From positions 28,752-92,751 of the IMG/VR virus record IMGVR_UViG_3300031867_000027: a stretch of DNA of 64,000 bases. One strand, given 5' to 3'. Positions 184-29,501 of the stretch are shown here, one piece after another. The notes under the pieces were generated by a model that saw only the letters and a list, made by a program, of their open reading frames with translations, was not told where the DNA came from and made no database searches. The DNA is from a virus. Its lineage: Duplodnaviria; Caudoviricetes. The stretch's first letter is position 1. Every line of letters starts with the position of its first letter. The translations under genes and the position numbers were made by a program.

Positions 184-822
184 ATGCGGAATTCAGATAA
201 ACTACTGTCTCACTGGATAGGTGATACGCTGCGAAGTATGAATACCCAGCTGTTGAATTATCAATCTACGTGTTGTTGTATAGATATTCTCGGTGATAAA
301 GGTAAAGCTTCCGGTAGATGTTTCTCTGCGGATCCGGATTGTAGTTCGTGTATTAGCAAGTACCTTAATAAAGCAACGTGGGAGCGTGATGAATCAATGT
401 TTATGTGGCACTATAAGATGATACCTTTTCTTTCTAAGAATCTACTTGAATCTCAATGGAACAGGTGTATCGGCATAGCTGAGGATATAGGTCATATCGG
501 TGAGCCAAGAGGTGAGTTCGTGAAACCTGTAATGCAGTATCCGATTCAGCAGTTCCGGGATTACTGCAATATGCTCATCGTAGCTATGGTTCATAATCAT
601 ATTAATGTGAGTGGATCGCAGATAAGCAAGTTGGATGATTGCATAGGCTTTGAGATAGAAACAATTAATCTACATAGAGCTATATTTAAGGATTGGCATA
701 ATTCAGAATATCTTGATATATGCCTTATGAATTTGAAATCCTTAGCTTTCCAAGGTGTGATACCGGAATCCGATTATCAATATATCAAGACTAATGTAGC
801 TGATGCTGAGGTGAATAAATGA
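184..822 (+). CDS. hypothetical protein
   Basis: Long ORF; ATG at 184 has GAAGGA RBS and lies downstream of the AATCGTT promoter motif (track start 145 probably too early). Confidence 0.7.
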   Translation: MRNSDKLLSHWIGDTLRSMNTQLLNYQSTCCCIDILGDKGKASGRCFSADPDCSSCISKYLNKATWERDESMFMWHYKMIPFLSKNLLESQWNRCIGIAEDIGHIGEPRGEFVKPVMQYPIQQFRDYCNMLIVAMVHNHINVSGSQISKLDDCIGFEIETINLHRAIFKDWHNSEYLDICLMNLKSLAFQGVIPESDYQYIKTNVADAEVNK

Positions 823-1535
823 AGGTACTGGAGCTATTCGCAGGTACACGGTCTATAGGTAAAGCATTTGAAGCCAAGGGTCACGAAGTATTCTCCGTAG
901 AATGGGATAAGAAGTTTGAGAATATAGATCTGTACAAGGATATAGGTGAACTGACAGCATCTGAGATACTTGATAAGTTCGGTCAGCCTGATGTGGTATG
1001 GATGAGTCCAGACTGCTCAAGCTATTCTATGGCGGCTATATTCTACCATAGGGTTAAGAATCCGGAAACCGGGAATCTTGACCCTAAGACAGACTATGCT
1101 AAGTTCTGCGATAGGGTAGACCAACACTGTTTAGATCTTATAGATGAGTTAAAGCCTAAATTCTGGTTCATTGAGAACCCAAGGGGGGGGCTCCGCAGTA
1201 TGACCTTTATGCAGGGTTTACCAAGATTTACCGTGTCGTATTGCCAATATGGAGATATACGGCAAAAGCCTACGGATATATGGACTAATCACGCTGATCC
1301 TAAATTCAAACCTTTATGCAAACCGGGTGCTCCGTGTCACGTTGCTGCTCCGAGAGGAAGCAAGACAGGTACACAAGGGTTGGCTAATTCGATGGAGAGA
1401 AGTAGAATTCCGGAAAAGCTCTGTGAACACATCGTTAATATATGTGAGGAATATATTGAATCTCAAACTACGGAACATACACCGGGATATTACAAATCTA
1501 AAGTTGTACAGTATAAACCCAAGAAACTATTCTAA
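819..1535 (+). CDS. C5-cytosine DNA methyltransferase-like (short form)
   Basis: Motif I LELFAG, SPDC catalytic motif, FIENP; ends KPKKLF. Confidence 0.8.
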   Translation: MKVLELFAGTRSIGKAFEAKGHEVFSVEWDKKFENIDLYKDIGELTASEILDKFGQPDVVWMSPDCSSYSMAAIFYHRVKNPETGNLDPKTDYAKFCDRVDQHCLDLIDELKPKFWFIENPRGGLRSMTFMQGLPRFTVSYCQYGDIRQKPTDIWTNHADPKFKPLCKPGAPCHVAAPRGSKTGTQGLANSMERSRIPEKLCEHIVNICEEYIESQTTEHTPGYYKSKVVQYKPKKLF

Positions 1536-1544
1536 GGTGGTCAT

Positions 1545-2135
1545 ATGCGTAAACAGATTCAAGATCAATCCGTGTCATACAGCAAGGGAAATAACAATGA
1601 GTGTTATACTCCGGCCTATGGTGTCCTCCCTATAATCAAGTATCTTCCGAAGGATAAGATAATATGGTGTCCGTTCGATTTAGAGAATAGTCAGTATGTT
1701 ATCCAGCTCAGAAAAGCCGGGTATGATGTTGTATTCTCTCATATTCACTCCGGTCAGGATTTCTTTTATTATGAACCGGATAGGTGGGATGTAATGGTAA
1801 GCAACCCACCATATGAAGGAAAACGTCAGATATTTGAACGAGCTTTAAGCTTTAATAAGCCATTTGCTTTGCTTATGATGAATACTTGGCTTAATGATGC
1901 CGCTCCGAAACAATTGTTTATGGACAAGCAGTTGCAACTTCTGATGTTCGATAAACGTATCAAGTTTATGAATAATGGTGTACTTAGCAACAAGATTACA
2001 TTTTCCAGTAGTTACTATTGTTATAACCTGCTCCCAAGGGATTTGATTATAGAGAGACTTGTTGAACCTAATTTCAATTATATTGATACAATGTCAGAGT
2101 TCTCAGGTTTGCCAAAATCAAAGAAACTGTTTTAA
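1545..2135 (+). CDS. N6-adenine DNA methyltransferase-like
   Basis: ECYTP, IWCPFD, SNPPY; ends KSKKLF. Confidence 0.8.
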   Translation: MRKQIQDQSVSYSKGNNNECYTPAYGVLPIIKYLPKDKIIWCPFDLENSQYVIQLRKAGYDVVFSHIHSGQDFFYYEPDRWDVMVSNPPYEGKRQIFERALSFNKPFALLMMNTWLNDAAPKQLFMDKQLQLLMFDKRIKFMNNGVLSNKITFSSSYYCYNLLPRDLIIERLVEPNFNYIDTMSEFSGLPKSKKLF

Positions 2136-2151
2136 TCAGAGAGGTATATGT

Positions 2152-2496
2152 ATGGGTTCTATATCCTTATTTGCTATCCCAAAAAGCAAAGATGATTCTT
2201 CTAAAACCGAAGATTCTAAGATTGCAGAGCTGATAAAGCGTAGGCGTAGACAGATTTTAGTTCATAGCTTTATTTACTATGAGCTGAATCAGAACATCAT
2301 CTCTGATGCTCAGTGGTCTGCTTGGGCTCAGGAGTTAGAGGAACTACAGTCTAAGTATCCGGATATATCAGATAACACAGAGTTCGCATCCGATTTCAAA
2401 GATTTTGACCATAGTACAGGAGCTAATCTCCGGGATGCATATAATAAGCCTAACATCGTCACCTTGGCATTTCGATTACTGCATTATAAGGAGTGA
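2152..2496 (+). CDS. stand-alone NAD-ligase domain Ia-like protein
   Basis: ILVHSFIYYELNQNIISDAQW..ELEELQSKYP resembles LigA N-terminal YY..D.P.ISD.EYD.L..EL..LE..P; RBS GAGAGGT. Confidence 0.65.
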   Translation: MGSISLFAIPKSKDDSSKTEDSKIAELIKRRRRQILVHSFIYYELNQNIISDAQWSAWAQELEELQSKYPDISDNTEFASDFKDFDHSTGANLRDAYNKPNIVTLAFRLLHYKE

Positions 2497-2502
2497 TATA
2501 TA

Positions 2503-2703
2503 ATGAAGTGTATTCATTGTAAGTACAGAAGGACTCTATATGCAACTGTAGATCTACAGTGCTATTGCAGTCATAGCCCGTTACAGAAGAAGATAAAAGC
2601 TGAGATCATAGGTGATTTGACAGCACCAGACTGGTGTCCGTTGAAAAATACCGAACTATCGGAGAATGCAGATGCTGACACTGAACAGAATATACAATAT
2701 TGA
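2503..2703 (+). CDS. small Cys-rich protein
   Basis: CxxC...C...PDWCPL; AGGAGTGA RBS. Confidence 0.6.
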   Translation: MKCIHCKYRRTLYATVDLQCYCSHSPLQKKIKAEIIGDLTAPDWCPLKNTELSENADADTEQNIQY

Positions 2704-3451
2704 TTGCCTTGAAGGTATGAATCTGATAGATGATAAGTCAATTGATATGATATTTGTTGATTTACCATATCAGAAAACTCACAATTCTTGGGATGTAATG
2801 ATTCCCTTTGAACCAATGTGGGAACAGTTTGAGCGTATTATCAAAGACAATGGAGCGATTCTACTCTTTGGTCAGGATAAGTTTACTGCAAAGCTGATGC
2901 TCTCTAATGAGAAGATACATAGATATAACATCATTTGGGATAAGGTCTTACCCAGCGGTCATCTGAATGCCAAAGTAATGCCTTTAAGATCCCACGAAGA
3001 TATATGTGTATTCTATAAGAACCCCGGCACGTATAACCCTCAGATGCGATTAGGTGATATGTGTCATACAAGAGGTAAAGCCGTAGGTCAAATGGCAAGT
3101 GATGTATCTCAACAGAAGAATTATGGTGACTACGAAATCGTCGAAACCGATGGTAAGTGGAAATACCCTACATCTATATGGACTTTTCAAAAACCACATC
3201 CTTCTACCGCTCTGCATCCTACACAAAAGCCGATTGACCTTTGCCGTTATGCTATCCGCACATACACCAATGAGGGTGATACGGTCCTTGATTGCTGTTG
3301 CGGCAGCGGATCCATTCCATTAGCCGCAAAGCTTGAACGCAGAAATTATATCGGTATGGATAATGGTTTTTCTGAAAAAGAAAACAGACCGTGGGCTGAT
3401 ATAGCTACAGAGCGTATAGCTCAATATAAAGTGAGTAGGAGATTATTCTAA
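2666..3451 (+). CDS. N4C/N6A DNA methyltransferase (beta class)
   Basis: DLPY, HPTQKP, VLDCCCGSGS; ends SRRLF. Confidence 0.9.
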   Translation: MQMLTLNRIYNIDCLEGMNLIDDKSIDMIFVDLPYQKTHNSWDVMIPFEPMWEQFERIIKDNGAILLFGQDKFTAKLMLSNEKIHRYNIIWDKVLPSGHLNAKVMPLRSHEDICVFYKNPGTYNPQMRLGDMCHTRGKAVGQMASDVSQQKNYGDYEIVETDGKWKYPTSIWTFQKPHPSTALHPTQKPIDLCRYAIRTYTNEGDTVLDCCCGSGSIPLAAKLERRNYIGMDNGFSEKENRPWADIATERIAQYKVSRRLF

Positions 3452-4194
3452 TGAGTGAAGTTAAACTATATCAAGGTGACTGTTTAGAGCTAATGAAACA
3501 GATACCAGATAAGAGCGTAGATATGATACTCTGTGATTTGCCGTATGGCACAACAGCTTGTAATTGGGATGTGATAATTCCGTTTGAATCTTTATGGAGC
3601 GAATATAATCGTATTATAAAAGATAATGGGGCAATTGCGCTTTTTGGGAATGAGCCTTTTACAAGTAAGTTGATTGTCAGTAATTTAAAGGGGTTTAAAT
3701 ATCGTTGGGATTGGAATAAAAAAATTCCGTCAGGAATGGGATATGCAAAATATAGACCTATGCAACAGACAGAGGATATATGTATATTCTCAAAAAATGG
3801 TTCAAAAACAAGATATTATCCACAAATGATAAAAAGAGATGAACCAATAAAAAGTGGTGGAAACACAATTCAGACAGGTGTATATTCAGGCTTTAAGTGT
3901 ATGGGAGAAGGAAAAGAATACAAAAAGACATATGATTACAAATTCCCTGTAACGCTTATTGAGTTTGACAAAATACGGCGTGGAGCTATTCACCCTACTC
4001 AAAAGCCAGTTCCTTTGCTTGAATATTTAATCAAAACCTATACAAATGAAGGTGATACCATCCTTGATAATTGCATGGGTAGTGGCAGTACAGGTGTTGC
4101 AGCCAAAAATCTCAATCGAGACTTCATTGGCATAGAGTTAGACGAAAACTACTTTGAAATTGCAAAATCACGAATTTTAGGTAACGTAGAATAG
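3451..4194 (+). CDS. N4C/N6A DNA methyltransferase (beta class)
   Basis: GDCLE, DLPY, HPTQKP, LDNCMGSGSTG. Confidence 0.9.
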   Translation: MSEVKLYQGDCLELMKQIPDKSVDMILCDLPYGTTACNWDVIIPFESLWSEYNRIIKDNGAIALFGNEPFTSKLIVSNLKGFKYRWDWNKKIPSGMGYAKYRPMQQTEDICIFSKNGSKTRYYPQMIKRDEPIKSGGNTIQTGVYSGFKCMGEGKEYKKTYDYKFPVTLIEFDKIRRGAIHPTQKPVPLLEYLIKTYTNEGDTILDNCMGSGSTGVAAKNLNRDFIGIELDENYFEIAKSRILGNVE

Positions 4195-4251
4195 GCAAAA
4201 AGTGGCTCTATTTTTACGATGAAATTCTGCTTTTATTGAAAGGAAGATATA

Positions 4252-5049
4252 ATGAGTAATATACAGTTAATATAGGGCGACTGCCTTGAACATCTCAAAG
4301 ACCTGCCCGACAATAGCGTAGACTTAATTCTTTGTGATCTCCCATATAAGGAAACTGGCAATAAATGGGATAAATCGTTTGATTTAGAAGGGGTGTGTCG
4401 TGAGTTTGAACGTCTAATTAAAGAAGATGGTTGCATTGCCCTTACTGGTACGTTTAGGTTTGGAGTGCAGTTATTCAATCTTATGCCTCATCTCTATAAG
4501 TATGACTGGGTATGGGAGAAAGATAACGGCACAAACGCCCCTAACGTAAATCTTCAGCCATTTAGAATACATGAATTTGTATTTATCTTTGGCAAGGGCA
4601 GAGTGACAAATGGCACAAGAACACCTATGAAGTATTTTCCTCAAAAGACAGACGCTACTCCATATTGTCAAAAGTCGGGCAGAATGAGTGACAACTGGAA
4701 GGGCGGTTTAGGCACTGTTGTAACAAACAATAAGGACGGCAAGCGTCACCCTAAGACAATACAGAAGTTCACAAGAGACAAAGGTGGATTCCACCCTACA
4801 CAAAAACCTGTAGCTTTACTTGAATACCTTATCAAAACATATACAAGAGAGGGGGACTTAGTTCTGGATTGTGTTATGGGTAGTGGTTCAACTGGCGTAG
4901 CAGCGAAGAACCTCAACAGAGATTTTATAGGTATAGAGCTTGATGAAGAATACTTCAAGATAGCTAAGGACCGTATCGAACATCAGCAGAGATTTCCTGA
5001 TATGCCTTATAAGAAACCACAGGAATCTAAGAGTAAGAGATTATTCTAA
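4252..5049 (+). pseudogene. N4C/N6A DNA methyltransferase with in-frame TAG at codon 8
   Basis: RBS GAAAGGAAG then MSNIQLI*GDCLEHLKDLPDNSVDLILCDLPY, in frame with ORF 4393..5049; TAG at 4273-4275; ends KSKRLF. Confidence 0.8.
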
Positions 5050-5062
5050 AGGAGATTTAATA

Positions 5063-5656
5063 ATGGCAAAGGATTGGAAAGGAAACAGCACATCCGTATA
5101 TGCTAACTTAGCAGCAAGTAATCATTCTGAGGAAGATAGAGCAGATAAAGATTACTATGCAACTCCACCATCTGCCGTGGAAGAACTGCTTAGAAGAGAG
5201 TCATTTAACCACTACATATTAGAACCAGCTGTAGGGGGAGGTCATATTGCTGATGTACTGAAGGCTCACGGTTATCAGGTACAGACTATGGATATAGTTG
5301 ATAGAGGGTATCCCGGCACTGAGGTCAAAGACTTCTTTACAGCCAATAAGAATGATTTGAAATGTTCACCGGACATTATAAGTAATCCTCCGTATGCTCT
5401 TGCATCTGACTTTATAGAACATTGCCTCGATATATCTATGGACACTGTAAAGGTTGCAATGCTTCTTAAGATACAGTTCCTTGAAACACAAAAACGATAC
5501 ATTTTGTTCCGAAAACATCTCCCAAAGAAGATATATGTCTTTGTAAATCGGGTGAACTGTGGTAAAAATGGTGTGTTTAGTGGTGAGTCATCAGCCGTAT
5601 GCTATGCTTGGTTTGTATGGGAGAAAGGGTATCAGGGTCTACCGGAGATTGATTGA
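5063..5656 (+). CDS. N6-adenine DNA methyltransferase; frame continues past TGA to 5695
   Basis: DYYATP, ILEPAVGGG, SNPPY, YAWFVWEKG; after the TGA reads IANDEPKSKRLF-stop. Confidence 0.85.
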   Translation: MAKDWKGNSTSVYANLAASNHSEEDRADKDYYATPPSAVEELLRRESFNHYILEPAVGGGHIADVLKAHGYQVQTMDIVDRGYPGTEVKDFFTANKNDLKCSPDIISNPPYALASDFIEHCLDISMDTVKVAMLLKIQFLETQKRYILFRKHLPKKIYVFVNRVNCGKNGVFSGESSAVCYAWFVWEKGYQGLPEID

Positions 5657-5705
5657 ATAGCGAATGATGAACCAAAATCAAAGAGATTATTCTAATATAT
5701 AAAGA

Positions 5706-5731
5706 AAAGCACCTCAATCCGAGGTGCTTTC
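5706..5731. terminator. bidirectional terminator between convergent genes
   Basis: AAAGCACCTC-AATCC-GAGGTGCTTT. Confidence 0.65.
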
Positions 5732-6148: not shown

Positions 6149-6198
6149 AGAAAATAATTCAACTCCTTCCTAATATATAATAATGATTATCTGATTCC

Positions 6199-6227
6199 AT
6201 TATATCACAGTTACGGTAGTATGTCAA
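6199..6227 (-). promoter_or_regulatory. sigmaA-type early promoter for the RHH gene
   Basis: TTGACA-17-TATAAT on minus strand; spacer carries GTTACGGTAGTA. Confidence 0.8.
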
Positions 6228-6878: not shown

Positions 6879-7964
6879 ATGAAACGCAAGAACAATACAT
6901 TGGAAAGACCTATACCGTTAAAGCACATAGATCAAGTCAGAGATAGTATTAAGGGCTATGGTGATGTCTACTCTGTTATGGATAGATGCAGAGCCAAGTT
7001 CATCGAATCAGGTATTAGTTGGGATGATAGGTGTTATCTTCCTTTGACTTGTGTAGTTGAGTTCCACAAGAACATTCGTAGCTTAAAGCAGATACCAGAT
7101 TCAGAAGGGTACGTACAGCTCTTGTTTCATACATATCAGTGGAGACAGCATAAGCAGATATATAGTTTTGACTCTACATTTGCAGAAGAATTGGTACAGT
7201 CTGATTCATCTGAGGTAGATACAGCTGTATTTGATAATCTACCATACAATTCTCTCTATGTAGAGATTAAAGATGGATTACACGCAGAGATGGGTAATCA
7301 TATAGTAGGATTTTACTGTTCTTACAACACTCAGGCCTATGCAAATGGTGATCCTGCTTGGGAAAGTGGATTCGCTAATTGCTTACATATAGTATTTGTA
7401 TCATCTAACGGAGCTGTAGTAGGTTGTCCTATCGCATTAGCAAAAGGCATTACTGTTAAGGATTCCCTCAATATGTACCTTCACGAATATGTGAAAGCTA
7501 TGGAAGCTGATCATAGTAGCAAAGATGAAGATGGTAGTTACTTCAATGCGCTAAAAGATGTACTGCCTACACTGTTAAATGCGGCTGTAAACCTTCTGTT
7601 ATATATCTGCTCTGTCAATAATGATATTCAGGAGAATCCGGAGCAGAAGAAAATATATAAAGCACCTTCTGCTTGCAGTATATCTAAGGATAAGCTCAGT
7701 GAAGTCAGAAAATGGGATGTAGGGTATAGAATCGGTAGAATCATAAGAGATTCAAAGAATGAGTCAGATACCAGACCACACGGAACTCATACTAACTCTT
7801 CCACTAAAAGACCGCATTCACGCAGAGGTCACTTCCATCATTATTGGGTTGGTAAGAGAGAATCGGAAGAGAGAAAGCTTATAGTAAAGTGGGTAGCTCC
7901 AATGTTTATTAATGCAAAGATAACTGAGGAAATGCCTGCGGTTATAACTAAGATAGAGTCATAA
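6879..7964 (+). CDS. acrVA2: AcrVA2/FinQ-family protein (anti-CRISPR-like)
   Basis: WR..IY.FD, FDNLPY..LYVEI, HIVGF, LLLYIC, GYRIG, TKRPHSRRGHFHHYWVG, VKW..MFIN in the order recalled for AcrVA2. Confidence 0.7.
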   Translation: MKRKNNTLERPIPLKHIDQVRDSIKGYGDVYSVMDRCRAKFIESGISWDDRCYLPLTCVVEFHKNIRSLKQIPDSEGYVQLLFHTYQWRQHKQIYSFDSTFAEELVQSDSSEVDTAVFDNLPYNSLYVEIKDGLHAEMGNHIVGFYCSYNTQAYANGDPAWESGFANCLHIVFVSSNGAVVGCPIALAKGITVKDSLNMYLHEYVKAMEADHSSKDEDGSYFNALKDVLPTLLNAAVNLLLYICSVNNDIQENPEQKKIYKAPSACSISKDKLSEVRKWDVGYRIGRIIRDSKNESDTRPHGTHTNSSTKRPHSRRGHFHHYWVGKRESEERKLIVKWVAPMFINAKITEEMPAVITKIES

Positions 7965-8858: not shown

Positions 8859-10826
8859 TTGGCTGAAAAACTGACTATAGGTAGTCTCTTTTCCGGTATA
8901 GGTGGATTTGAGTATGTAGCATCACTATACGGAATAGAGCCTATATGGGCTTCTGAGATTGAAGATGCTCCTATACGTATCACTAAAAGACACTTCCCCA
9001 AGATGAAACATTATGGGGATATTACGAAGATGAATGGTGCAGAGATTGAACCTGTTGATATCATTTCCGGGGGGTCACCCTGTACCGATCTATCCGTGGC
9101 CGGAAAACAAGAAGGTATAAGCCGTAAATGCTCTGCCTGCGGAATGGTTCTCCCATTGAACTTTTCAGAAAATCTGTGTCCTAAATGTGGAGCGGAAATA
9201 GAGTTTACACGCAGCGGTCTGTTTATGGAGCAGATCAGAATAATAAAAGAAATGAGGAAAGCTACAAATGAACGGTTTCCAAAAGTTATTATCTGGGAAA
9301 ATGTTCCCGGAGCTCTCGGATCAAACAACGGAGATGACTTCCAATGTGTCCTCAGCGAATTCGTTGGATTATTTGGAGAAAAACTACCAACGCTTAGACC
9401 TGAGAAGTGGTGTAAAGCAGGGGAGATTGTGGGAGACAACGGTTCCCTCGCTTGGAGAACTCTCGATGCTCAATATTGGGGAGTACCCCAGCGAAGAAAG
9501 AGAATCTACCTTGTCGTCGATCTTACAGGACAACGTGCCGGAGAAATACTATTTAAGTCAGAAAGCTTGCGAAGGCATACTCCGCAGGGCGAAATCCCGT
9601 GGAAAAGAACTTCCGGAGCGGTTAAGAGTAGCATTGGAACAGCAGATAGAACAGGCAAAGCAGAATCCGGAGAAGTAGAATCTTGTGTTGTACTTAATGA
9701 TCAGGGTGGTTCAGTAATGGATGTTACTGAGGGTAAAACCGGAACACTAAGAGCTGAAACTCACGGTCACGCACCTGTGGTAGTAGATGATGTTGATAGA
9801 ACAGTATATGGTATATGCTCTCTTGGATCTAACTGTATGAAGTCAGATAATCCGGATAGCGGATTCTACGAAGCAGATATAATTAAGACTTTGGATACTT
9901 CCGGTGCTAACCCTTCTTGTAATCAGGGTGGCAATGTGATAGTTGAAACTCCGGTGTACTGTATGCAAGGGAACTGCATAGACAGAGGCATTAAATCCGG
10001 TTGTAACGGTAAAGGTTGGGGTGAAGATGTATGCTTTACGTTGACCACAGCTGACCGACACGCTGTAGCTTATAGTGTGTCAGAAAATGGATCACAGGAA
10101 GTACGTATTACAAAAGAAGTAGCAGCTACACTTACAACAGGGGGTGGAAAACCCGGTCAGGGTTATCCTTGCGTGTTAGAAGAGAACGAATCTCAATGCG
10201 GAGCTTTCCTTGGCAAGCAGAGTGATTCTGCAAGAGGTATCGGTTATTCTGAAAAGGTGTCTCCTACTTTAGTTGCTGGAGAACCCCCACAAGTTGCTGA
10301 GTATGATAAGCATAGTATGGCGTTTTCATATCAGATGGGTCCGGGTGTACCATATCTTCCTTGTAGCGATGAACTCTCCCCAACGTTAGTATCGAGTCAA
10401 CATATAGGTGTGCTCATCGACAATCACGGTCAAGATTGTAGATGGAAAGAGTGCAAAGATGGCATATGCCCTACATTATCCGCTAATATGGGTATGGGTG
10501 GTAATAATCAGCCATTATATGTAGAGCCTACTATCGCTGCAAGTAAAGCATCTTTCTTCACAAGAGCATCAGAGAATGATGTAGCGGAATGTTTGGTGGC
10601 TACAGATTACAAAGACCCTCAGATTGTACTTAGGCCTAATAGTATTGTTCGTAGACTTACACCATTGGAGTGTACCAGACTTCAAGGTTTCCCAGACGGT
10701 TGGGTAGATGGTGAATCTGATGCAGCTCAAAACAAAGCATTAGGAAACTCAGTTGCATTACCTTGTGTTGACTATGTGATGAGCGGTGTGGTTGATGTTC
10801 TTGATCCGATAGTAGAGGGTGATTAA
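8859..10826 (+). CDS. C5-cytosine DNA methyltransferase, multi-TRD, with zinc-ribbon insert
   Basis: SLFSGIGG, GGSPC, WENVPG, PQRRKR, about 8 TL-type repeats, RRLTPLEC.RLQGFPD, GNSV. Confidence 0.93.
   Translation: MAEKLTIGSLFSGIGGFEYVASLYGIEPIWASEIEDAPIRITKRHFPKMKHYGDITKMNGAEIEPVDIISGGSPCTDLSVAGKQEGISRKCSACGMVLPLNFSENLCPKCGAEIEFTRSGLFMEQIRIIKEMRKATNERFPKVIIWENVPGALGSNNGDDFQCVLSEFVGLFGEKLPTLRPEKWCKAGEIVGDNGSLAWRTLDAQYWGVPQRRKRIYLVVDLTGQRAGEILFKSESLRRHTPQGEIPWKRTSGAVKSSIGTADRTGKAESGEVESCVVLNDQGGSVMDVTEGKTGTLRAETHGHAPVVVDDVDRTVYGICSLGSNCMKSDNPDSGFYEADIIKTLDTSGANPSCNQGGNVIVETPVYCMQGNCIDRGIKSGCNGKGWGEDVCFTLTTADRHAVAYSVSENGSQEVRITKEVAATLTTGGGKPGQGYPCVLEENESQCGAFLGKQSDSARGIGYSEKVSPTLVAGEPPQVAEYDKHSMAFSYQMGPGVPYLPCSDELSPTLVSSQHIGVLIDNHGQDCRWKECKDGICPTLSANMGMGGNNQPLYVEPTIAASKASFFTRASENDVAECLVATDYKDPQIVLRPNSIVRRLTPLECTRLQGFPDGWVDGESDAAQNKALGNSVALPCVDYVMSGVVDVLDPIVEGD
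9268..9678 (+). CDS. overprinted methyltransferase beta subunit (M.EcoHK31I beta-like)
   Basis: Alternative frame within MTase; KMFPE..., EYPSEERESTLSSIL...KYYLSQKACEGILRRA..RGKELP; upstream GAGG RBS. Confidence 0.7.
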   Translation: MNGFQKLLSGKMFPELSDQTTEMTSNVSSANSLDYLEKNYQRLDLRSGVKQGRLWETTVPSLGELSMLNIGEYPSEERESTLSSILQDNVPEKYYLSQKACEGILRRAKSRGKELPERLRVALEQQIEQAKQNPEK

Positions 10827-10827
10827 A

Positions 10828-10869
10828 AATAAGGACCGCAGGCTGAAATCCAGCTTGCGGTCTATTATT
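10828..10869. terminator. bidirectional terminator
   Basis: GACCGCAGGCTG-AAATC-CAGCTTGCGGTC between convergent genes. Confidence 0.7.
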
Positions 10870-12634
10870 ATGTACTGTAGATGGATACATAGTATGTTAA
10901 ATCGAATCTATGATGCCTCTTACGTATGGAATTCCTTTGATAAGAGAATTGTTGTTGTGGAATCATTAGATGTTTAATGGTTTCAGAACAACGATATTCT
11001 TTTCCATAGGTCATTGATGATGTTTCCCCATTTTTAAGTATTATATCTATATTCATTGAGTTATCATTTACAGAGGAGACTTCTATCTTGTATATAGCCT
11101 CCTTGATAAGAGAATCTATACAATCCTTTGATATAAGCTCATCAGCATCACTATGTATCTTTAATATGGTATTTCTTATGTTTTTTACAGATTTCAGCTC
11201 TTGTTCGATTGTTGTATCTGATGATTCATAGACTTGTAATTGTTCTGTCAGAACGCTCAGTGCAGAATCAAGTTCGTTGTTTTTGAGGTTGAAGTCAGCT
11301 TTCGATATATCATCATCCATATACAGGTCTAATAACCTTGCTTTTCTTTCGTGAATTCTTTGGATTTGCTGATTCAGTTTAGAGATTTCAGCTTTGTGAT
11401 CCGGTACAGTCTTTTTGTATAGTTCTATGAATTCATCTATGTATTTGTCCATATTACCAATTAAATTTTTGAACATATCTGAAAGGATGCCGTACAGTTC
11501 CCATTCCATAATGGCAAATGATTTACAAGACTTAGCTCCTGATTTCTTTTTGGAACTGCATACCCACTGATATGTGGTATTTCCTTTTTGAACACTATTA
11601 GAATATGATGTTCTCCAATATGCTGATCCATCTGCGGCACAGTATATTTTTCCAGTCAGCGGTGATCTGTCTTTGAATGATCTGCCGTGATTTTTTATAG
11701 CTTCACTACGTTCTTTGAATATTTTATCACATTTATTCCATAATTCTTCTGGAACAATAGCCGGAACAGTTTCACCGGATTCATCTTTGTAATAAACCCA
11801 TTCTTCTTCCGGAAGGAATTTCTGCTGCTTAGTACGATAGTCAACAATTCTTACCTTATTACCACAATAATATCCCTTATACTTTGGATTCTGCAAGATG
11901 CCGCAGATGGTATTAGGTGATATATCCGTACCACTCCGGCTTTTGTATCCTTTCTCTTTAAGCACATTAGCTATCTTTCGGGTGCTGTAATCTCCGGTAG
12001 CATACAAGCTGTATATCAGCCGTATCATTTCAGCTTCTTTTTCTACGATGGTGAGCTTACAATCCTCTTTATTGTAGCCATACAACCGATTATTACCCAT
12101 CACTCTACCGCTTTCGATAGAGCGTTTCTGCCCCCAATGAACACGCTCTGAGAGCTTTCTGACTTCATCAGCAGCGATACTTGACATTATAGTAAGTCTT
12201 AGTTCGCTATCAGTATCAATAGTGCAGATACCATCATTCTGAAAGTACACACCGACACCGGAACGAAGTAATTCTCTTGTATAGGTAAGGCTGTCTATTG
12301 TGTTTCGTGCAAATCTTGATACTTCTTTTGTAAGTATCAAATCAAACTGACCAGCTTTACCGTCAGCAATCATATTTAAGAAGTTTTCTCTATTACTTGC
12401 TGATTCTCCACGGATTCGGTCAACATATCCATCAACAAAAGTCCAATTAGGATTATTCTGAATCATATCAGTGAAAAACTCAATCTGATGTTCAATAGAT
12501 CCTTCTTGTTCTTCTCTTGTAGTGGATACACGGGCATAAAATGTGACCCTAAGTTCTATATCGTGGATTGTTTTGTGCTGCATTTTTAGCATATTTGCAA
12601 CGCTGTATATATCCATATGTATCATCTCCCACAT
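10868..12634 (-). CDS. large serine recombinase (integrase family)
   Basis: FYARVST catalytic Ser, KEVSRFARN, recombinase domain ILQNPKYKG..PAIV, zinc-ribbon/coiled coil. Confidence 0.93.
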   Translation of the reverse strand: MWEMIHMDIYSVANMLKMQHKTIHDIELRVTFYARVSTTREEQEGSIEHQIEFFTDMIQNNPNWTFVDGYVDRIRGESASNRENFLNMIADGKAGQFDLILTKEVSRFARNTIDSLTYTRELLRSGVGVYFQNDGICTIDTDSELRLTIMSSIAADEVRKLSERVHWGQKRSIESGRVMGNNRLYGYNKEDCKLTIVEKEAEMIRLIYSLYATGDYSTRKIANVLKEKGYKSRSGTDISPNTICGILQNPKYKGYYCGNKVRIVDYRTKQQKFLPEEEWVYYKDESGETVPAIVPEELWNKCDKIFKERSEAIKNHGRSFKDRSPLTGKIYCAADGSAYWRTSYSNSVQKGNTTYQWVCSSKKKSGAKSCKSFAIMEWELYGILSDMFKNLIGNMDKYIDEFIELYKKTVPDHKAEISKLNQQIQRIHERKARLLDLYMDDDISKADFNLKNNELDSALSVLTEQLQVYESSDTTIEQELKSVKNIRNTILKIHSDADELISKDCIDSLIKEAIYKIEVSSVNDNSMNIDIILKNGETSSMTYGKEYRCSETIKHLMIPQQQFSYQRNSIRKRHHRFDLTYYVSIYST

Positions 12635-12637
12635 TAA

Positions 12638-12666
12638 ACTATATCATACCGTTACCGCATTGTCAA
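12638..12666 (-). promoter_or_regulatory. sigmaA-type promoter of recombinase
   Basis: TTGACA-17-TATAGT; spacer contains GTAACGGTA. Confidence 0.7.
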
Positions 12667-12728
12667 TATCTACATAATAATTTTTCTGATTTAGCAATCG
12701 TTATAAGTAGTAGAAGAGGTGATGCTAC

Positions 12729-12860
12729 GTGGATAATATCAAATATATTGTATTCAAATCTTGGGCGAAGGTACTGTTGGATAAGCAGGTTATTACCTTA
12801 GAACAATTCAATGCTCTATGCTTAGAGATTGATTCAGCTCAAAGAGTAAACCGTGGGTGA
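12729..12860 (+). CDS. 43-aa SHOCT-like protein (not in track)
   Basis: GTG start after GAGGTGA; MDNIKYIVFKSWAKVLLDKQVITLEQFNALCLEID; promoter motif at 12695. Confidence 0.55.
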   Translation: MDNIKYIVFKSWAKVLLDKQVITLEQFNALCLEIDSAQRVNRG

Positions 12861-12908
12861 TTAAGCCTACGGTTTTCTTGTTGATAACCTTATATAATAG
12901 AAATTATT

Positions 12909-13148
12909 ATGCTTATAAGGGGGTGCTCTGCCTTGGAGCTGAATATACCTGAGTATGACATCACTGTTGTTCCGGGTAGTGTTATCAGGATCGGAAGATT
13001 TGAACACGAAACTTGGATAGTCGAATATGGTTGGTATTCGTGGGGTGGAAATAGACCTGTATGCGGTTGGTATTTGACTAATTCAATGACCAAATCCGTA
13101 AAACCGTTATACTACACAGATTTAGAAGATACCTATGTGGTTGAGTGA
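12909..13148 (+). CDS. hypothetical late protein
   Basis: ORF directly after AACCTTATATA motif. Confidence 0.6.
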   Translation: MLIRGCSALELNIPEYDITVVPGSVIRIGRFEHETWIVEYGWYSWGGNRPVCGWYLTNSMTKSVKPLYYTDLEDTYVVE

Positions 13149-13159
13149 GAGGTGTACGT

Positions 13160-13384
13160 ATGAGCAATGTAACAATCTATCTGCAAAAACATCTAACTTG
13201 GGAAGGGTCTGTATCTGTTACACACTATGAGATTATAGTTGACAGTGAGTCTGACCTTCCAAGTGATGAGTATTATTTTGGTGCAGATCACAAAATCGCT
13301 ATGGGTAGCATAGCGTGGGTCATAACTGCTTCTGAATTCTATATGTATAACTCATCACATCAATGGATTAAACAGAATACTTAA
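13160..13384 (+). CDS. small virion-associated hypothetical protein
   Basis: GAGGTG RBS; DLP...MGSIAWV...YMYNS..QW. Confidence 0.6.
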   Translation: MSNVTIYLQKHLTWEGSVSVTHYEIIVDSESDLPSDEYYFGADHKIAMGSIAWVITASEFYMYNSSHQWIKQNT

Positions 13385-13401
13385 ATGCAGGAGGGATTTA
13401 T

Positions 13402-13677
13402 ATGGTGGTAAATGTATTAGGTGGTACACTTCCGCAGATTGAGATAGATCAGTATGTTGAAATGCTTAAAACAAAGTATAGTGGTCGAACAATTCAACAG
13501 CTGGATATTACCGTAGATAATGATTTTGTTGACATAAAAACTACCTTAGCACCTCTGCCGTTTTACCGATTAAGAAGGATCACCGGGTATTTGACCAATA
13601 CGTTGGATCGGTGGTGCGATGGTAAGAGGGCAGAAGAGAGAGATAGAGTAAAACACTCAATCGTTGAAATGGAGTGA
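13402..13677 (+). CDS. mini protein carrying only the NrdD C-terminal glycyl-radical motif
   Basis: RLRRITGYL...WCDGKRAEERDRVKH. Confidence 0.75.
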   Translation: MVVNVLGGTLPQIEIDQYVEMLKTKYSGRTIQQLDITVDNDFVDIKTTLAPLPFYRLRRITGYLTNTLDRWCDGKRAEERDRVKHSIVEME

Positions 13678-13684
13678 TTATAAT

Positions 13685-15856: not shown

Positions 15857-15866
15857 TTGAGGTGGT

Positions 15867-16394
15867 GTGATGAAAAGATATATTCGTAGAAGCATTGCGG
15901 CTTCCTTGAAGCAGTTAGATGATGGTGGTATACTCCTTACAGATTATGTCGGGGATGTAGTCAATCTGCTCATAAATAAGCCTAAGCCTTACAGATTGTG
16001 CTATCTTGAATATGATGATGTGTGGCTGATAGCAGATGCTATGACATATCTTCACGAGGAAATGATAGAAAAATCCGTAGATGAAGGGTGGCTTCCTAAG
16101 ACATTAGAGTTTATGAGAAAGTATAATGAGGACATCTCGGATATAGATGCTAATAGGTCTGTGAATTTGATTTTTCTGACCGATGAGTGTATGACACAAT
16201 TCGGTAGCTATACAGATCCTTATGCTACAGCCGAGTTTGGGTATGAATATCCGATAACTACAGGTTCATTATTCACAAAATCCAATCTATCAAGTAATTA
16301 TTTGAAACGATCCGCCCCTGAACTATACAACAAGCTTAAAAAATATGCTATATCCGAGAATAGGATAATAGATGATGATACGGCGTGGGATTGA
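15867..16394 (+). CDS. hypothetical protein with MKRYI N-terminus
   Basis: GAGGTGG RBS. Confidence 0.7.
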   Translation: MMKRYIRRSIAASLKQLDDGGILLTDYVGDVVNLLINKPKPYRLCYLEYDDVWLIADAMTYLHEEMIEKSVDEGWLPKTLEFMRKYNEDISDIDANRSVNLIFLTDECMTQFGSYTDPYATAEFGYEYPITTGSLFTKSNLSSNYLKRSAPELYNKLKKYAISENRIIDDDTAWD

Positions 16395-16405
16395 GGTAGA
16401 AGCAT

Positions 16406-16804
16406 ATGAAACGATACATTATATCAGCACAGCAACAACCTACCGGAAGTGCTCTTGTCAATAAGATAGGTATGTATTTATACAAACATTTGGATGGTGC
16501 ATTCAAATATACAAAGGATCGCAACACCTTTGATGTGTATGTTACACTTCTGTATGAGCTCAAAGAGGAATATGGTGGAACTAAGAACGATGTGCAGGAG
16601 ATGACTATAAACATTAGTATTACTACCTATCAGAATAAGATAAGGGTCAACACTATTGAAGTCACTCCAAAAGCTCGTACTTTGGGATTTGATTTATTCC
16701 CCATAGACAAGATGTATGATATGCAGTTGGCGATGGATATAATAAAATGGAAAGTGAGCAAGCGCATTCAGAAAGCTTATGAACATTATATTATCCTATT
16801 CTAA
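16406..16804 (+). CDS. hypothetical protein with MKRYI N-terminus
   Basis: GAGGT RBS. Confidence 0.7.
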   Translation: MKRYIISAQQQPTGSALVNKIGMYLYKHLDGAFKYTKDRNTFDVYVTLLYELKEEYGGTKNDVQEMTINISITTYQNKIRVNTIEVTPKARTLGFDLFPIDKMYDMQLAMDIIKWKVSKRIQKAYEHYIILF

Positions 16805-16860
16805 ATGATAAATAGCCATATCCAATCGTTATTATAGGTAGGATATGGCTATATTTTTCA

Positions 16861-16900
16861 GTTGCAACTTTGTTGCAAGTTTGTTGCAAGTTTGTTGCAA
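16861..16900. repeat. 11-bp tandem repeat (TTTGTTGCAAG), about 3.6 copies
   Basis: Read directly; each unit contains palindrome TTGCAA. Confidence 0.9.
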
Positions 16901-16933
16901 TATATGATTATATTATATAAAGGAGCGCACTAT

Positions 16934-17344
16934 ATGACTGTCGATTTTATATTCCCGGATAACTTAAATCTTGAAGATGAAAGCCTTAAGGATATGGTGT
17001 CAGATGTCAATGCCTTTGTTGCAGAACTACCTGATGATGCTACGCTATTACACCTCAGATTGCCGGATGATATTATGTTTAATGACGCTACAAATAATAG
17101 AATCCGTTGGTATATGAAGGGTATCAGAGAGTTTTTATCTGTAGCAAGACCTAACATTGTCACACTATGTAATCAATTTGATATGACTGCGGATAGTGAA
17201 AACTTCATATCGGCTGACTTTGATGTACCTGATGAATTATCTAAAGATACTCTATTATCCCTATGCTATGAGTTACTATCCATAGTAGATGAATCCGATA
17301 CTATGATTGATACCTCTGTTTCAGAGATAATTTTACCGGACTAA
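16934..17344 (+). CDS. hypothetical acidic protein
   Basis: AAGGAG RBS before ATG 16934. Confidence 0.65.
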   Translation: MTVDFIFPDNLNLEDESLKDMVSDVNAFVAELPDDATLLHLRLPDDIMFNDATNNRIRWYMKGIREFLSVARPNIVTLCNQFDMTADSENFISADFDVPDELSKDTLLSLCYELLSIVDESDTMIDTSVSEIILPD

Positions 17345-23620: not shown

Positions 23621-23757
23621 ATTTTTCCAATCGTTATAATATGTGACAGCTTGTCACGTACTGAGTCATTCTTGAAAATATCAATCGTTATAATAAGTGA
23701 CAGGGCAAGCTATATCTTGATGGTATTATTGCCAAATAACAGCCGGAGGTTATAATT

Positions 23758-26507: not shown

Positions 26508-27847
26508 TAGCTTCTATTGAGTTGCAGGTTATATCTAAGATACTGACCTCAGATGATCCACAGGAAGTCGAAACGCTCTGCGAGTTCGATGATTCATACT
26601 ACTCTTTGTTCAAACCGCATATACAGTTTATCCTGAAACATAAGGATAAGTACGGTAAAGTTCCGGATCCGTTCACATTCCAGTCAGAGTTTATGGATTT
26701 CAACACTGTTGCTGTCCGTGAGTCTATGGATTATCTCACTGAGCAGATGCGTAAGAATAAGCGGCATATTCTTATGACTGAGACATTTAACCAGCTCAAA
26801 GATATGGGATCTGATGACATAGATGTAGCTTGGCAGTATCTGAGACTTCAGTGCGAAAAAGTGGATGAGTTGGATTCTACTCAGCCATTGGATATTGTTC
26901 ACGATGCTCAGAAACGTGGTAGTCAAGTTATAGAGTACAGTCAGCAATCAAGAATACCTACAGGATTTCCGGAGATTGACAAGGCTATGTATGGTGGACT
27001 GTCCACCGTAGAAGAACTACTTGTCCTTGTAGCGAGGACGAATTCCGGAAAGTCGTGGATTGCATCTAAAATGATGGAAACCGCACAGAAGAACGGTTTC
27101 CCCGTGTTATACTATTCACCGGAAATGCAAGCAAGTTATCTTGGTACAAGATTCGATACGTGGCGTGGTCATTTTTCCAACTCCCAGATTCATCAAGGTA
27201 ATTATACTGAGCAGTATTATGACTACCTTAAAAAACTGCAAGAGGAAGATGCAAGTGCTTTTGTATTAGAAGATAAAGACGCTCCGGATGGAAATGTTAA
27301 TGTGCCGTTGTTGAAACGTTTTGTCCGGAAAAATAAGATAAAGCTGGTAGTCATTGATGGCCTTTCATATATGGAAGATGCGAAGGGTAAGAGGGGAGAC
27401 ACGGACTCCATTAAGTATAAGAACTTGTGCGCAGACCTCTTTCAGATGAGTAAACAGTGTGGCTGTGCTGTTGTAGTTATTCTTCAAGCAAACAGAGCTA
27501 CGAAGGATAACAAGGATGATAAGGGTGAGGTGTTCCCCAACATTTACAACATTGAAGGTTCGGATCACCCAGCGAGAATCGCTACTCAGGTATTTGCGAT
27601 GAGACAGATATTTGATAAGCACGTTCTTGATATCCGCTTAGAGAAGTCAAGAAATGCTAATAATCAGAAACCTGAGTTCTCATATGCTTGGGATATTAAC
27701 ACAGGTAACGTTCAGTATCTTGCAAGTGAAGCTGATATTGTAGGTTCAAGCGGTGTTCCTACGGTCAACGCTGCGCTTAATGTACCGAACGTAGCCGCTC
27801 AGACCGCAGATATATCTCTTGATGATTCTGACGATCTAAGGTGGTGA
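26504..27847 (+). CDS. dnaB: DnaB-like replicative helicase
   Basis: IPTGFPEID, ARTNSGKS, YSPEM, VVIDG, QANR, KSRN. Confidence 0.9.
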   Translation: MIASIELQVISKILTSDDPQEVETLCEFDDSYYSLFKPHIQFILKHKDKYGKVPDPFTFQSEFMDFNTVAVRESMDYLTEQMRKNKRHILMTETFNQLKDMGSDDIDVAWQYLRLQCEKVDELDSTQPLDIVHDAQKRGSQVIEYSQQSRIPTGFPEIDKAMYGGLSTVEELLVLVARTNSGKSWIASKMMETAQKNGFPVLYYSPEMQASYLGTRFDTWRGHFSNSQIHQGNYTEQYYDYLKKLQEEDASAFVLEDKDAPDGNVNVPLLKRFVRKNKIKLVVIDGLSYMEDAKGKRGDTDSIKYKNLCADLFQMSKQCGCAVVVILQANRATKDNKDDKGEVFPNIYNIEGSDHPARIATQVFAMRQIFDKHVLDIRLEKSRNANNQKPEFSYAWDINTGNVQYLASEADIVGSSGVPTVNAALNVPNVAAQTADISLDDSDDLRW

Positions 27848-27851
27848 ATCT

Positions 27852-28844
27852 ATGGTAGACGTAGTAGAGGTTTTAGATAAGCTTGAATTCTATGGGCTTC
27901 TGAAACAAAGTAAGCGTGTAGGGAACTATATGCAGATACACTGTCCGTTTCACGGTAACGGTCAAGAGAAGAAGCCATCCTGCGGTGTGTTGCTTGTAGA
28001 TGAAGTTCGTGCCGGAAAGAAGTACCCAAAAGGCTTCTTCCATTGCTTTGCCTGCTCTTATGCTAAAACGCTGGAGCAGGCTGTGAGCGATATGTTGAAG
28101 CAACAGAACATACAACAATCCGGGGTAGAATGGCTTACTGAGAACATTCCCGGCTTTGAGGTGGCAGATGATAGTGATGATCTTATATCTATGGATACTA
28201 TGGATGCCCTTATGGGTAAGTATGCAGTAGATTATATCAATTTGCTATCTCAGAAGAAACCTGAGTATATCACTGAGGAAGAACTTGCTAAATATAGATA
28301 TACAGTACCATATATGTATGAGCGCAAGCTGACCGATGAGATAATCGAGAAGTATGATATTGGCTTTGATGCTAATTGGATTCCTCCGGGAAGGAAGAAA
28401 CCAGTTCCGTGTATAACTTTTCCTGTGCGAGATATGTATGGCAATACCTTATTCTTCTGCCGTAGAGCTATTGCTACTAAGTTGTTTAACTATCCGCAAG
28501 GTGTAGTTAAACCTGTTTACGGCATATACGAACTACCAAAGGATTGTAAATCCGTAGTGGTGTGTGAGAGCTGCTTCAACGCTCTCACATCAGTTCGATA
28601 TGGCAGACCTGCGGTAGCTTTATTGGGTACTGGTAATACATATCAGATAAACCAATTGAAACAATTAGGTGTCAATGAGTTCATATTAGGGTTTGACCCT
28701 GACGATGCCGGAAGAAGGGCTACGGAGAAGCTTAAAAAAGCATTACGAAGTGTAGCTATTGTGTGGTCCTTTGATGGTATCCCAGAAGGTAAGGATATAA
28801 ATGATTTGACCGAAGATGAGTTCAATCAGCTGGAATTAATATGA
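27852..28844 (+). CDS. dnaG: DNA primase (CHC2 zinc finger plus TOPRIM)
   Basis: CPFH..FHCFAC; VCES; FDPDDAG; KDIND. Confidence 0.9.
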   Translation: MVDVVEVLDKLEFYGLLKQSKRVGNYMQIHCPFHGNGQEKKPSCGVLLVDEVRAGKKYPKGFFHCFACSYAKTLEQAVSDMLKQQNIQQSGVEWLTENIPGFEVADDSDDLISMDTMDALMGKYAVDYINLLSQKKPEYITEEELAKYRYTVPYMYERKLTDEIIEKYDIGFDANWIPPGRKKPVPCITFPVRDMYGNTLFFCRRAIATKLFNYPQGVVKPVYGIYELPKDCKSVVVCESCFNALTSVRYGRPAVALLGTGNTYQINQLKQLGVNEFILGFDPDDAGRRATEKLKKALRSVAIVWSFDGIPEGKDINDLTEDEFNQLELI

Positions 28845-28851
28845 TGAAGGA

Positions 28852-29175
28852 GTGAGATGCAAAATGAATATTATGGATAATGAGTATTCAAATGAGTTTG
28901 ATAAGCTCCGTAGGAATCGTGTAGAGGTCAGCTATTACAAATACGGTCCTGTACGAGATAACTTTGCATCCGGTAGGGTTGATGCTATCGGTAGTCTTGA
29001 ACTCTGCCTTGAGAAGTTCAAAAAGACCCACAATACGGAGTACCTGCTCGACGTTGCTAATTATGCTATGTTTAGATATATGTACCCTTTACCCGGTGAG
29101 TTCTTCAAACAAACTGATAGTTCTGAAAGTGCAGGTACTATTGGTACGCCTATCAATATGGAGCGTGATTATTAA
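28852..29175 (+). CDS. conserved phage hypothetical protein
   Basis: YYKYG...NTEYLLDVANYAMF. Confidence 0.7.
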   Translation: MRCKMNIMDNEYSNEFDKLRRNRVEVSYYKYGPVRDNFASGRVDAIGSLELCLEKFKKTHNTEYLLDVANYAMFRYMYPLPGEFFKQTDSSESAGTIGTPINMERDY

Positions 29176-29501
29176 TGACAAATACTGTGTTGATTAAGTG
29201 GGATACCGGAGAGCTGGAATTAGATATGACCTGCTTCATTGATGATATGCCTGATAAATTTAAGTGTGAACGTATAGCTACTTTAGCGAAGGAATCCGAT
29301 AGAAATTATGGTACATCTGTTGTTCCGGAACTACAACGGTACTGTTCTGACTTCATACAGAATATGGATCATATTTATACGGATAAAAGAGCAACGACTA
29401 AGTGGAAGAAACAAATTAAGCAATTCACAGCTTTTCTGCTTGAACCCTTACCTCAGCCGAAACCACAGATTGTAAAGCTTAAATCTATACGGTTGTTCTG
29501 A
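29175..29501 (+). CDS. hypothetical protein ending KSIRLF
   Basis: ORF coupled to upstream stop. Confidence 0.7.
   Translation: MTNTVLIKWDTGELELDMTCFIDDMPDKFKCERIATLAKESDRNYGTSVVPELQRYCSDFIQNMDHIYTDKRATTKWKKQIKQFTAFLLEPLPQPKPQIVKLKSIRLF

Follow-up and report, generated by a model that had tools for sequence, protein, structure and literature searches.

The subject of this analysis is a stretch of 64,000 nucleotides of phage DNA (hereafter the window), i.e. bases 28752-92751 of the 92,751-bp Caudoviricetes record IMGVR_UViG_3300031867_000027, in which DNA methyltransferases (MTases) of unrelated families end in the same short basic tail, K/R-K/R-L-F. Five out of the seven phage DNA MTases of the window have such an end, if the tail of M6, which stands behind a TGA, is counted. 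Comparison of protein sequences strongly supports the view that the tail is a portable docking tag of DNA-modifying enzymes, and we consider it probable that it is a variant clamp-binding motif, which would recruit these enzymes to the sliding clamp encoded by the phage. Both the clamp as the receptor and a gain in the speed of modification through docking are what we infer. A sequence-only reading of the same DNA had proposed a phage-specific docking tag of this kind. The tag itself is supported by the distribution of the tails, by a matching motif on the polymerase and by synteny, but the qualifier "phage-specific" has to be dropped, since the motif is widespread and near the canonical bacterial one.

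Tailed methyltransferases of the window

The record is 64% complete according to CheckV, and the same phage is also carried on a 131,112-bp ENA contig. The genes relevant to the tails are the following.

819..1535, + strand: M1, short C5-type DNA MTase, end ...YKPKKLF (PF00145, phrog_757)
1545..2135, + strand: M2, NPPY-type DNA MTase, 24-residue linker and then ...PKSKKLF (phrog_799)
2152..2496, + strand: stand-alone ligase-like Nlig-Ia domain protein, 114 amino acids, start MGSISLFAI, i.e. with an N-terminal SLF (PF22745)
2666..3451, + strand: M3, N6/N4 DNA MTase, end ...VSRRLF (PF01555, phrog_67)
3451..4194, + strand: M4, N6/N4 DNA MTase, paralogue of M3 and M5, tail-less, end ...GNVE (PF01555, phrog_67)
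4252..5049, + strand: M5, N6/N4 DNA MTase, end ...SKSKRLF, in-frame TAG at 4273-4275 (codon 8) (PF01555, phrog_67)
5063..5698, + strand: M6, NPPY-type DNA MTase, TGA at 5654-5656, after which the frame runs on as IANDEPKSKRLF (phrog_799)
8859..10826, + strand: large C5 DNA MTase, 655 amino acids, tail-less (PF00145 in the gene table of the identical 131-kb contig)
29175..29501, + strand: replication-module protein of 108 amino acids, function unknown, end ...KLKSIRLF

The protein ends from which the docking idea started, namely YKPKKLF (1535), PKSKKLF (2135), VSRRLF (3451), SKSKRLF (5049) and LKSIRLF (29501), are all read at these positions. So is PKSKRLF (5695) behind the TGA of M6, where the frame closes with a stop at 5696-5698. 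One start had to be corrected: reading of the frame shows that the gene ending at 5049 really begins at 4252 (MSNIQLI). The carriers had been described as members of different MTase families, and the Pfam and phrog matches agree, placing them in three unrelated ones: PF00145/phrog_757 (M1), phrog_799 (M2 and M6) and PF01555/phrog_67 (M3 and M5). The end of the 108-residue protein of the replication region is of the related xRLF type.

The probability that a protein ends in [KR][KR]LF, calculated from the composition of this genome, is 3.5e-5 per protein. Among 117 open reading frames (ORFs) one would thus expect 0.004 such ends, whereas four were observed, plus the one behind the TGA. Internal occurrences of the same tetrapeptide are near expectation (2 observed, about 1 expected). 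The synonymous variation of the tail codons that had been described earlier is also seen here, i.e. Leu is encoded by CTA, CTG, TTA or TTG and Phe by TTC or TTT. The tails of M3, M5 and M6 have 14-15 identical terminal nucleotides in common.

It is evident from the homologues that the tails lie beyond the conserved fold. All of the IMG/VR homologues of M2 (77 out of 77) end near residue 172, about 24 residues short of M2, and lack the extension. Of the best 120 homologues of M6, 99 end in ...DWI(A), while the other 21 add a variable stretch of 8-12 residues and then [KR][KR]LF or a near variant of it. Similarly, 86 of the top 120 homologues of M1 end in ...HIVDICE, and 34 have a linker and xLF (e.g. 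KQIKLF, KPKRLF, QIRLFDL). The linkers in front of LF vary, whereas LF itself is invariant across the tails. Each MTase family thus has close homologues both with and without linker and tail, in agreement with the earlier description of a linker and tail placed after the catalytic fold, and on this comparison the tail is a portable add-on to the MTase fold. Like known clamp-binding motifs, it is short, lies in a segment that is terminal or disordered, and has a hydrophobic Leu-Phe pair that is conserved.

Tails and matching motifs in related phages

The MTase island has no match among GenBank phages in a megablast search, and the clamp has none there in a tblastn search. A single-sequence search of IMG/VR with the clamp gave no match either, and therefore a profile was needed. 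Built from 68 clamp homologues, it led to 52 IMG/VR loci with a syntenic module, which are called the relatives below. The order of the module is DnaB, primase, SSB, PolA, clamp, Cas4-like exonuclease, DnaX-like protein, RecA, delta-like and delta'-like subunit.

In the relatives a DpdA-like protein of 315-343 amino acids is encoded directly after the delta'-like gene, and [KR][KR]LF is found at its C terminus or at most 4 residues from it in 34 out of 38 cases. Many of these tails carry 1-4 residues beyond LF (KKLFDLPI, RKLFDL, KKLFSFQA). A census of the relatives gave 56 tailed proteins among 3,066 unique ORFs: 45 DpdA-like proteins, 7 MTases, 3 HNH or NUMOD4 endonucleases and one ORF of 52 residues. 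Carriers of the tail include two HNH/NUMOD4 endonucleases and a short NUMOD4-like ORF. In other words, the tail is almost confined to DNA-acting enzymes. It had been conceded at the outset that a tail equally common on non-DNA proteins would undermine the docking idea; this is not what we see, as 55 of the 56 tailed proteins are DpdA-like, MTase or HNH proteins. The strictly C-terminal form occurs in 28 out of 3,066 unique ORFs of the relatives vs 1 out of 2,037 in control phage loci.

The MTases of the relatives behave in the same way. On two contigs (L330, L332) three or four MTases, all of them tailed, fill the slot of DpdA right after the delta'-like gene. In L335, which is a closer relative and shares the MTase island of the window, each of the four MTases that end inside the locus is tailed. 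The 108-residue protein has the tail in 5 out of 6 full-length homologues (...KSIRLF, ...KSKRLF, ...KAKRLF, ...GNKKLF, ...KSKSLFKI). We note that no DpdA was found in the present record, which is about 64% complete by CheckV; the slot that holds DpdA or tailed MTases in the relatives is occupied in the window (42454-45295) by a radical-SAM protein (phrog_9298), a 190-residue protein and a DUF4317 protein (E 5e-77).

Weak GT2/TAGT-like and MT-A70-like matches and clear Nlig-Ia proteins also carry the tail in deeper clades, and the tag may extend to DNA glycosyltransferases. The xLF ends on weak GT2/TAGT-like and MT-A70-like proteins beside DpdA and the clamp are those of L229:8902-9801, L232:8940-9887, L226:11020-11886 and L242:16532-17089. 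Tails also occur in phages with clamps that share only 35-47% identity with that of the window.

The DpdA-like proteins are tied to DpdA by several family links. They match phrog_887, annotated as queuine tRNA-ribosyltransferase, with E values of 1e-34 to 4e-38, they are 34-35% identical to proteins of phages Dp-1 and Flasso (tblastn), and the family links to the DpdA of CAjan, 9g and NP1. No TGT family was matched in Pfam (one chance-level match to Nse5) and none in NCBIfam at E<=0.01, and there was no sequence match in the PDB; NCBIfam gave no matches for any protein tried. DpdA1 of CAjan inserts preQ0 (10.1101/2023.04.13.536721). In the DpdA literature the insertion is seen as post-replicative, the efficiencies of the subfamilies are very different, and some enzymes fail alone in E. 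coli.

The DpdA proteins of named phages end in QGKLF (Flasso), QRRLF (Dp-1), QELF (NP1), ERRLF (RHph_X3_2), MELF (CAjan), QGLF (VspDsh_1) and PVLF (Yong-L2-223). In all seven the clamp gene lies no more than about 1.5 kb downstream of DpdA, with the polymerase next in three, and the polymerases, where read, start ...G[LF]FWQD[LM]P. The named phages with tails infect hosts of several bacterial phyla. In CAjan, VspDsh_1 and Yong-L2-223 the genes of the 7-deazaguanine precursor pathway (FolE, QueD, QueE, QueC) adjoin DpdA.

A comparison of relatives with and without a clamp had been suggested as a check, and its outcome agrees with the docking idea: tails are found on DNA-acting enzymes in clamp encoders, and phages without this clamp family hold tail-less homologues. 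The clamp family is present in none of 10 phage genomes that carry tail-less homologues of M2 or M6, while the same search found 5 out of 5 positive controls, distant ones included. The Pfam family PF00712 does not detect the clamps that are annotated in CAjan, NP1 and Yong-L2-223 and is thus not usable to show the absence of a clamp. The DpdA-like protein of Mycobacteriophage Hilltopfarm lacks LF, and the annotation of the first 54 kb of that genome contains neither a clamp nor a polymerase.

The polymerase of the module carries a motif of the same kind at its other end. M-x-L-F is found at the N terminus in 43 out of 45 relatives, and the polymerase of the window starts with MGLFS at 30648. 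In deeper clades the start is M-A-x-L-F-D-L-P, i.e. it reads like DpdA tails of the type KKLFDLPI. The two ends appear to vary together: in a clade where the polymerase start reads ...SLWG[DE], DpdA ends in ...GLGW or ...ELW in 5 out of 6 cases, as compared to LF tails in 15 out of 16 in the clades with LF polymerases. The Nlig-Ia proteins start with MGSISLFAI (window, 2152), MKAKSLFAI (L335) or MSLFQ (relatives), or else end in ...NSLF or ...GALF. The conservation in the relatives bears out the earlier guess that MGLF of the polymerase and MGSISLF (2152) are variants of the motif. Finally, the delta-like subunit of the window has KKRLFPL in a loop that is exposed in the AlphaFold2 model, after helix 52-60, and K[HRQ][LI][IFV]PL is kept in 44 relatives. 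E. coli delta contacts beta via a Leu-Phe pair at a similar position. The motif is thus common to unrelated proteins, including the polymerase, the delta-like loader subunit, MTases, DpdA, HNH endonucleases and Nlig-Ia proteins.

Some further observations concern the same proteins. The Nlig-Ia protein of the window (2152-2496) is an NAD+-binding domain, and the record holds no ligase catalytic domain; the family recurs in the relatives, always with a terminal LF-type motif. An insert of about 2 kb, with a GIY-YIG gene and a conserved ORF of 72 amino acids (33309-33527, 87% identical in L078), divides the polymerase gene (30639-35008) into two ORFs, and the polymerase genes of the relatives include intact, split and much longer (intein-like) versions. 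In the window, as in most relatives, the SSB-like protein (29873-30571) and the Cas4-like exonuclease (36178-36948) begin with MAF[KR]. The C-terminal tail of the SSB-like protein is acidic and has Phe at or next to its end (...VDFD in the window, ...VSF or ...VDF in the relatives).

The phage clamp as candidate receptor

The window encodes a polymerase, a clamp and a clamp loader of its own.

30648..32018, + strand: DNA polymerase A, N-terminal half (exonuclease domain and start of the polymerase domain), start MGLFS (PF01612, PF00476)
32505-33239: GIY-YIG endonuclease in the insert that splits the polymerase gene (PF01541)
33992..35008, + strand: DNA polymerase A, C-terminal half (PF00476)
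35075..36178, + strand: phage beta-type sliding clamp, 367 amino acids, proposed receptor of the tails (PDB profile, AlphaFold2 model, Foldseek)
36939..37991, + strand: DnaX-like clamp-loader ATPase (PF13177, PF00004, PF22608, PF12169)
40752..41663, + strand: delta-like clamp-loader subunit, 303 amino acids, KKRLFPL at residues 62-68 (phrog_20214, AlphaFold2 model, Foldseek)
41665..42444, + strand: delta'-like (HolB-like) clamp-loader subunit (PF13177)

The clamp is remote from its bacterial counterparts (12-17% identity to DnaN) and stays below the Pfam cut-offs, with 21.2 bits vs 24.4 for PF00712 and 20.1 vs 27 for PF02768. Its family profile matches B. subtilis DnaN in the PDB with an E value of 1.6e-6. 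The AlphaFold2 model has a predicted local distance difference test score (pLDDT) of 93.7 and a predicted TM-score of 0.89, and a Foldseek search with it gave B. subtilis DnaN (4tr6; E 1.6e-22, TM 0.74) followed by hundreds of DnaN chains. According to the model, the clamp has a true beta-clamp fold with three domains. The delta-like subunit (pLDDT 90.9) matches clamp-loader chains of E. coli and B. subtilis in Foldseek, including delta, and the loader is co-encoded as a DnaX-like ATPase with delta-like and delta'-like subunits. The beta-like clamp and the DnaX/HolA/HolB-like loader that had been read from the sequence are therefore present, as judged by profile and structure matches.

We propose that the C-terminal x-[KR]-[KR]-L-F is probably a short motif for docking, in which the clamp-binding motif of bacteria takes a basic form, and that it is placed on a flexible linker past the catalytic fold. 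The terminal Leu-Phe would plug into the hydrophobic cleft of the phage beta-type clamp (35075-36178), which would be loaded by the phage DnaX-like, delta-like and delta'-like proteins and to which the phage polymerase would also bind, via its N-terminal M-G-L-F. Clamps that stay behind on the new DNA would then recruit the MTases and, in the relatives, DpdA, HNH endonucleases and probably glycosyltransferases, so that nascent phage DNA could be modified quickly and processively, ahead of host restriction. A structure of the E. coli clamp with a bound Ac-Leu-Phe dipeptide is available (PDB 4k3l). A complex prediction for a clamp dimer and residues 160-196 of M2 scored 0.02; controls were not run, and the result counts neither for nor against binding.

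Several points weigh against clamp docking. The tails of the window, P/S/V-[KR]-[KR]-L-F, are strongly basic and lack the Gln that occupies the first pentapeptide position of the canonical motif (Q-L-S/D-L-F); the Gln form is seen only in some relatives (QKKLF, QIKLF, QRRLF, QGKLF). Two out of the seven MTases are tail-less (3451-4194; 8859-10826), and the tail is therefore not needed by every MTase. Clamp, loader, polymerase, helicase, SSB and RecA move as one module, so that co-occurrence alone cannot single out the clamp. The covariation of LF and LW may represent a single evolutionary event, and a search for clamp alignment columns that follow the LF or LW clades yielded nothing usable, as divergence across the clades is too great for covariation of the pocket to be read from the clamps.

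A further point concerns the stops in M5 and M6. The TAG of M5 stands where a paralogue has Gln, and another assembly has the identical M5 sequence with this TAG. The TGA of M6, 13 codons before the end of the gene, takes the place of a Trp codon that is kept in all homologues, and homologues at 91-98% identity read ...EIDWIANDEPKAKRLF. As both stops are the same in three assemblies, the early TAG and the tail behind the TGA suggest relaxed selection or unusual decoding; M5 and M6 may have become stable pseudogenes, or translation may pass through the stops. Recoding of stops throughout the genome was rejected, since a suppressor tRNA is missing and read-through of either stop does not lead to a general fusion of ORFs. 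The claim that the anti-restriction MTases are the carriers of the tag consequently holds for five out of seven, with reservations for the tail of M6 behind the stop and for the early TAG of M5, and not for the two tail-less enzymes.

The alternative that fares best is that the tails dock on the DnaN of the host rather than, or besides, the phage clamp, i.e. on a tool-belt site of the host replisome. The motif is near the canonical bacterial one, with Q-x-x-L-F in the relatives named above, and the phage clamp is itself a homologue of DnaN. Nevertheless, the tailed proteins co-occur with a clamp encoded by the phage, phages without that clamp family hold tail-less homologues, DpdA and clamp genes are neighbours in the seven named phages, and the phage polymerase carries the matching motif. 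We therefore regard docking on the host clamp as unlikely.

Slightly less likely still is another hub of the replisome as the partner, such as the clamp loader, the DnaB-like helicase, SSB or the RecA-like protein. The tail and all of these genes stay together in one conserved module, and comparative genomics cannot separate them. Nevertheless, a polymerase with its own clamp and loader must bind the clamp, and its sole conserved terminal motif is the same LF. To our knowledge, no comparable LF-binding site exists on loader, helicase, SSB or RecA-like proteins. Peptides with a terminal Leu-Phe are, on the other hand, a known type of beta-clamp ligand (PMC9690074; PDB 4k3l).

The sequence of the tail also calls to mind signals for degradation. 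ClpX recognizes a class of basic-hydrophobic C termini, e.g. the end RRKKAI of MuA, and basic residues followed by two hydrophobic ones at the extreme C terminus fit this class. A tag for degradation or remodelling by an AAA+ protease of the host could limit the lifetime of DNA-modifying enzymes and nucleases, and a phage might want the dose of an HNH nuclease or MTase to be limited. This is improbable in view of the many DpdA tails that are not terminal, of the N-terminal position of the same motif on the polymerase and on Nlig-Ia proteins, of the aromatic residue that co-varies with the polymerase motif, and of the tight linkage of the tail to clamp genes. A reading of the tail as a basic extension for non-specific DNA binding, or as what is left of a shared recombination cassette boundary, without a specific partner, would suit the Lys/Arg-rich composition and the identical terminal nucleotides of M3, M5 and M6, but we give it very little credence, as the hydrophobic LF is invariant and the basic residues are not, linkers and codons vary, and the tail recurs on unrelated families, in phages with strongly diverged clamps and in named phages whose hosts come from several phyla.

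Genomic setting and comparison with known systems

The surroundings of the tailed genes deserve a short description. The MTase island is adjoined by a 361-residue protein (6879-7964) that the gene table of the identical contig lists as AcrVA2-like, an anti-CRISPR family (PF26125), and this neighbourhood suggests an anti-defence island. The same table gives a large serine recombinase (Resolvase/Recombinase/Zn_ribbon_recom) at 10868-12634 on the - strand, according to which the phage may be temperate or a mobile insert may be present. A paralogue family of small proteins starting with MKRYI[KR] (MKRLIRA in L224) is found at 15867-16804 of the window and at genome bases 10423-17265 upstream of it. 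One of its subfamilies ends in ...Y[EID][FI]LF in every relative. The ORF 16406-16804 (end ...YIILF) was excluded as a tail carrier, since it belongs to a family of its own, all members of which have inherited their [FI]LF end and are without the basic residues.

The closest parallel to the tails is the bacterial clamp-binding motif QL(S/D)LF, which is typically C-terminal (PMC9690074). In both cases a short, often terminal Leu-Phe peptide is found on many unrelated DNA enzymes including a polymerase (in bacteria Pol II, Pol IV, MutS/L, Hda and ligase), and the bacterial motif is read by a clamp of the DnaN fold. The phage tails differ in having Lys/Arg at the Gln and Leu positions and in their carriers, since MTases, DpdA and homing endonucleases are not known as clients of the bacterial clamp; moreover, the phage clamp is self-encoded and remote from DnaN.

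Tethering of a DNA methyltransferase to a sliding clamp has a precedent in DNMT1, which is bound to PCNA via a PIP box and thereby methylates newly replicated DNA efficiently (PMC9690074). There, however, the clamp is PCNA, the motif is Qxx[IL]xxFF and the purpose is maintenance methylation, as opposed to the proposed protection of a viral genome from restriction; the PIP box pattern Q-x-x-[ILM]-x-x-[FY]-[FY] fits none of the tails. Among phages, the tails resemble the case of T4/RB69, where several phage proteins, and not the polymerase alone, bind a clamp encoded by the phage with short hydrophobic tails at their termini. There the gp45 clamp is read by the C-terminal tails of gp43, gp33 and gp55; it is a trimeric, PCNA-like clamp, and its clients are the polymerase and transcription factors. 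We know of no DNA-modifying enzyme that uses the T4 clamp. MuC of phage Mu recruits the host beta clamp for late transcription (PMC12867686), and so here too a clamp-binding motif is present on a phage protein outside replication, but it is a transcription activator, the clamp is that of the host and there is a single client. Finally, ParB-dependent phage thymidine dioxygenases have a subclass-specific C-terminal extension and need a co-encoded ParB for efficient post-replicative modification (PMC13229309). They are similar as phage hypermodification enzymes with a C-terminal extension that rely on a co-encoded partner loaded on DNA, but this partner is ParB and not a replicative clamp, and the extension forms a domain and is thus more than a binding motif. 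Full-text literature searches found no paper linking DpdA or phage MTases to a clamp or to clamp-binding motifs.

A general rule can be formulated, to which we would give about an even chance: in phages with a clamp of their own, post-replicative modification enzymes may be clients of the clamp via a terminal Leu-Phe/Leu-Trp tag. The rule would apply to DpdA (CAjan, the 9g-like Queuovirinae, Dp-1), to orphan MTases of multiple folds and probably to DNA glycosyltransferases. DNA modification is the main counter of phages to restriction, and enzymes that act after replication have to keep up with the fork. If the rule is true, modification would be physically coupled to the fork, which could explain the high modification levels as well as the poor performance of some such enzymes when expressed alone in a foreign host. 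If the tails dock on the clamp, they would constitute a counterpart of DNMT1-PCNA in prokaryotic viruses and add three new classes of beta-type clamp clients, i.e. methyltransferases, DpdA and homing endonucleases. The tail would also provide a simple sequence mark by which fork-coupled modification enzymes can be found in metagenomes.

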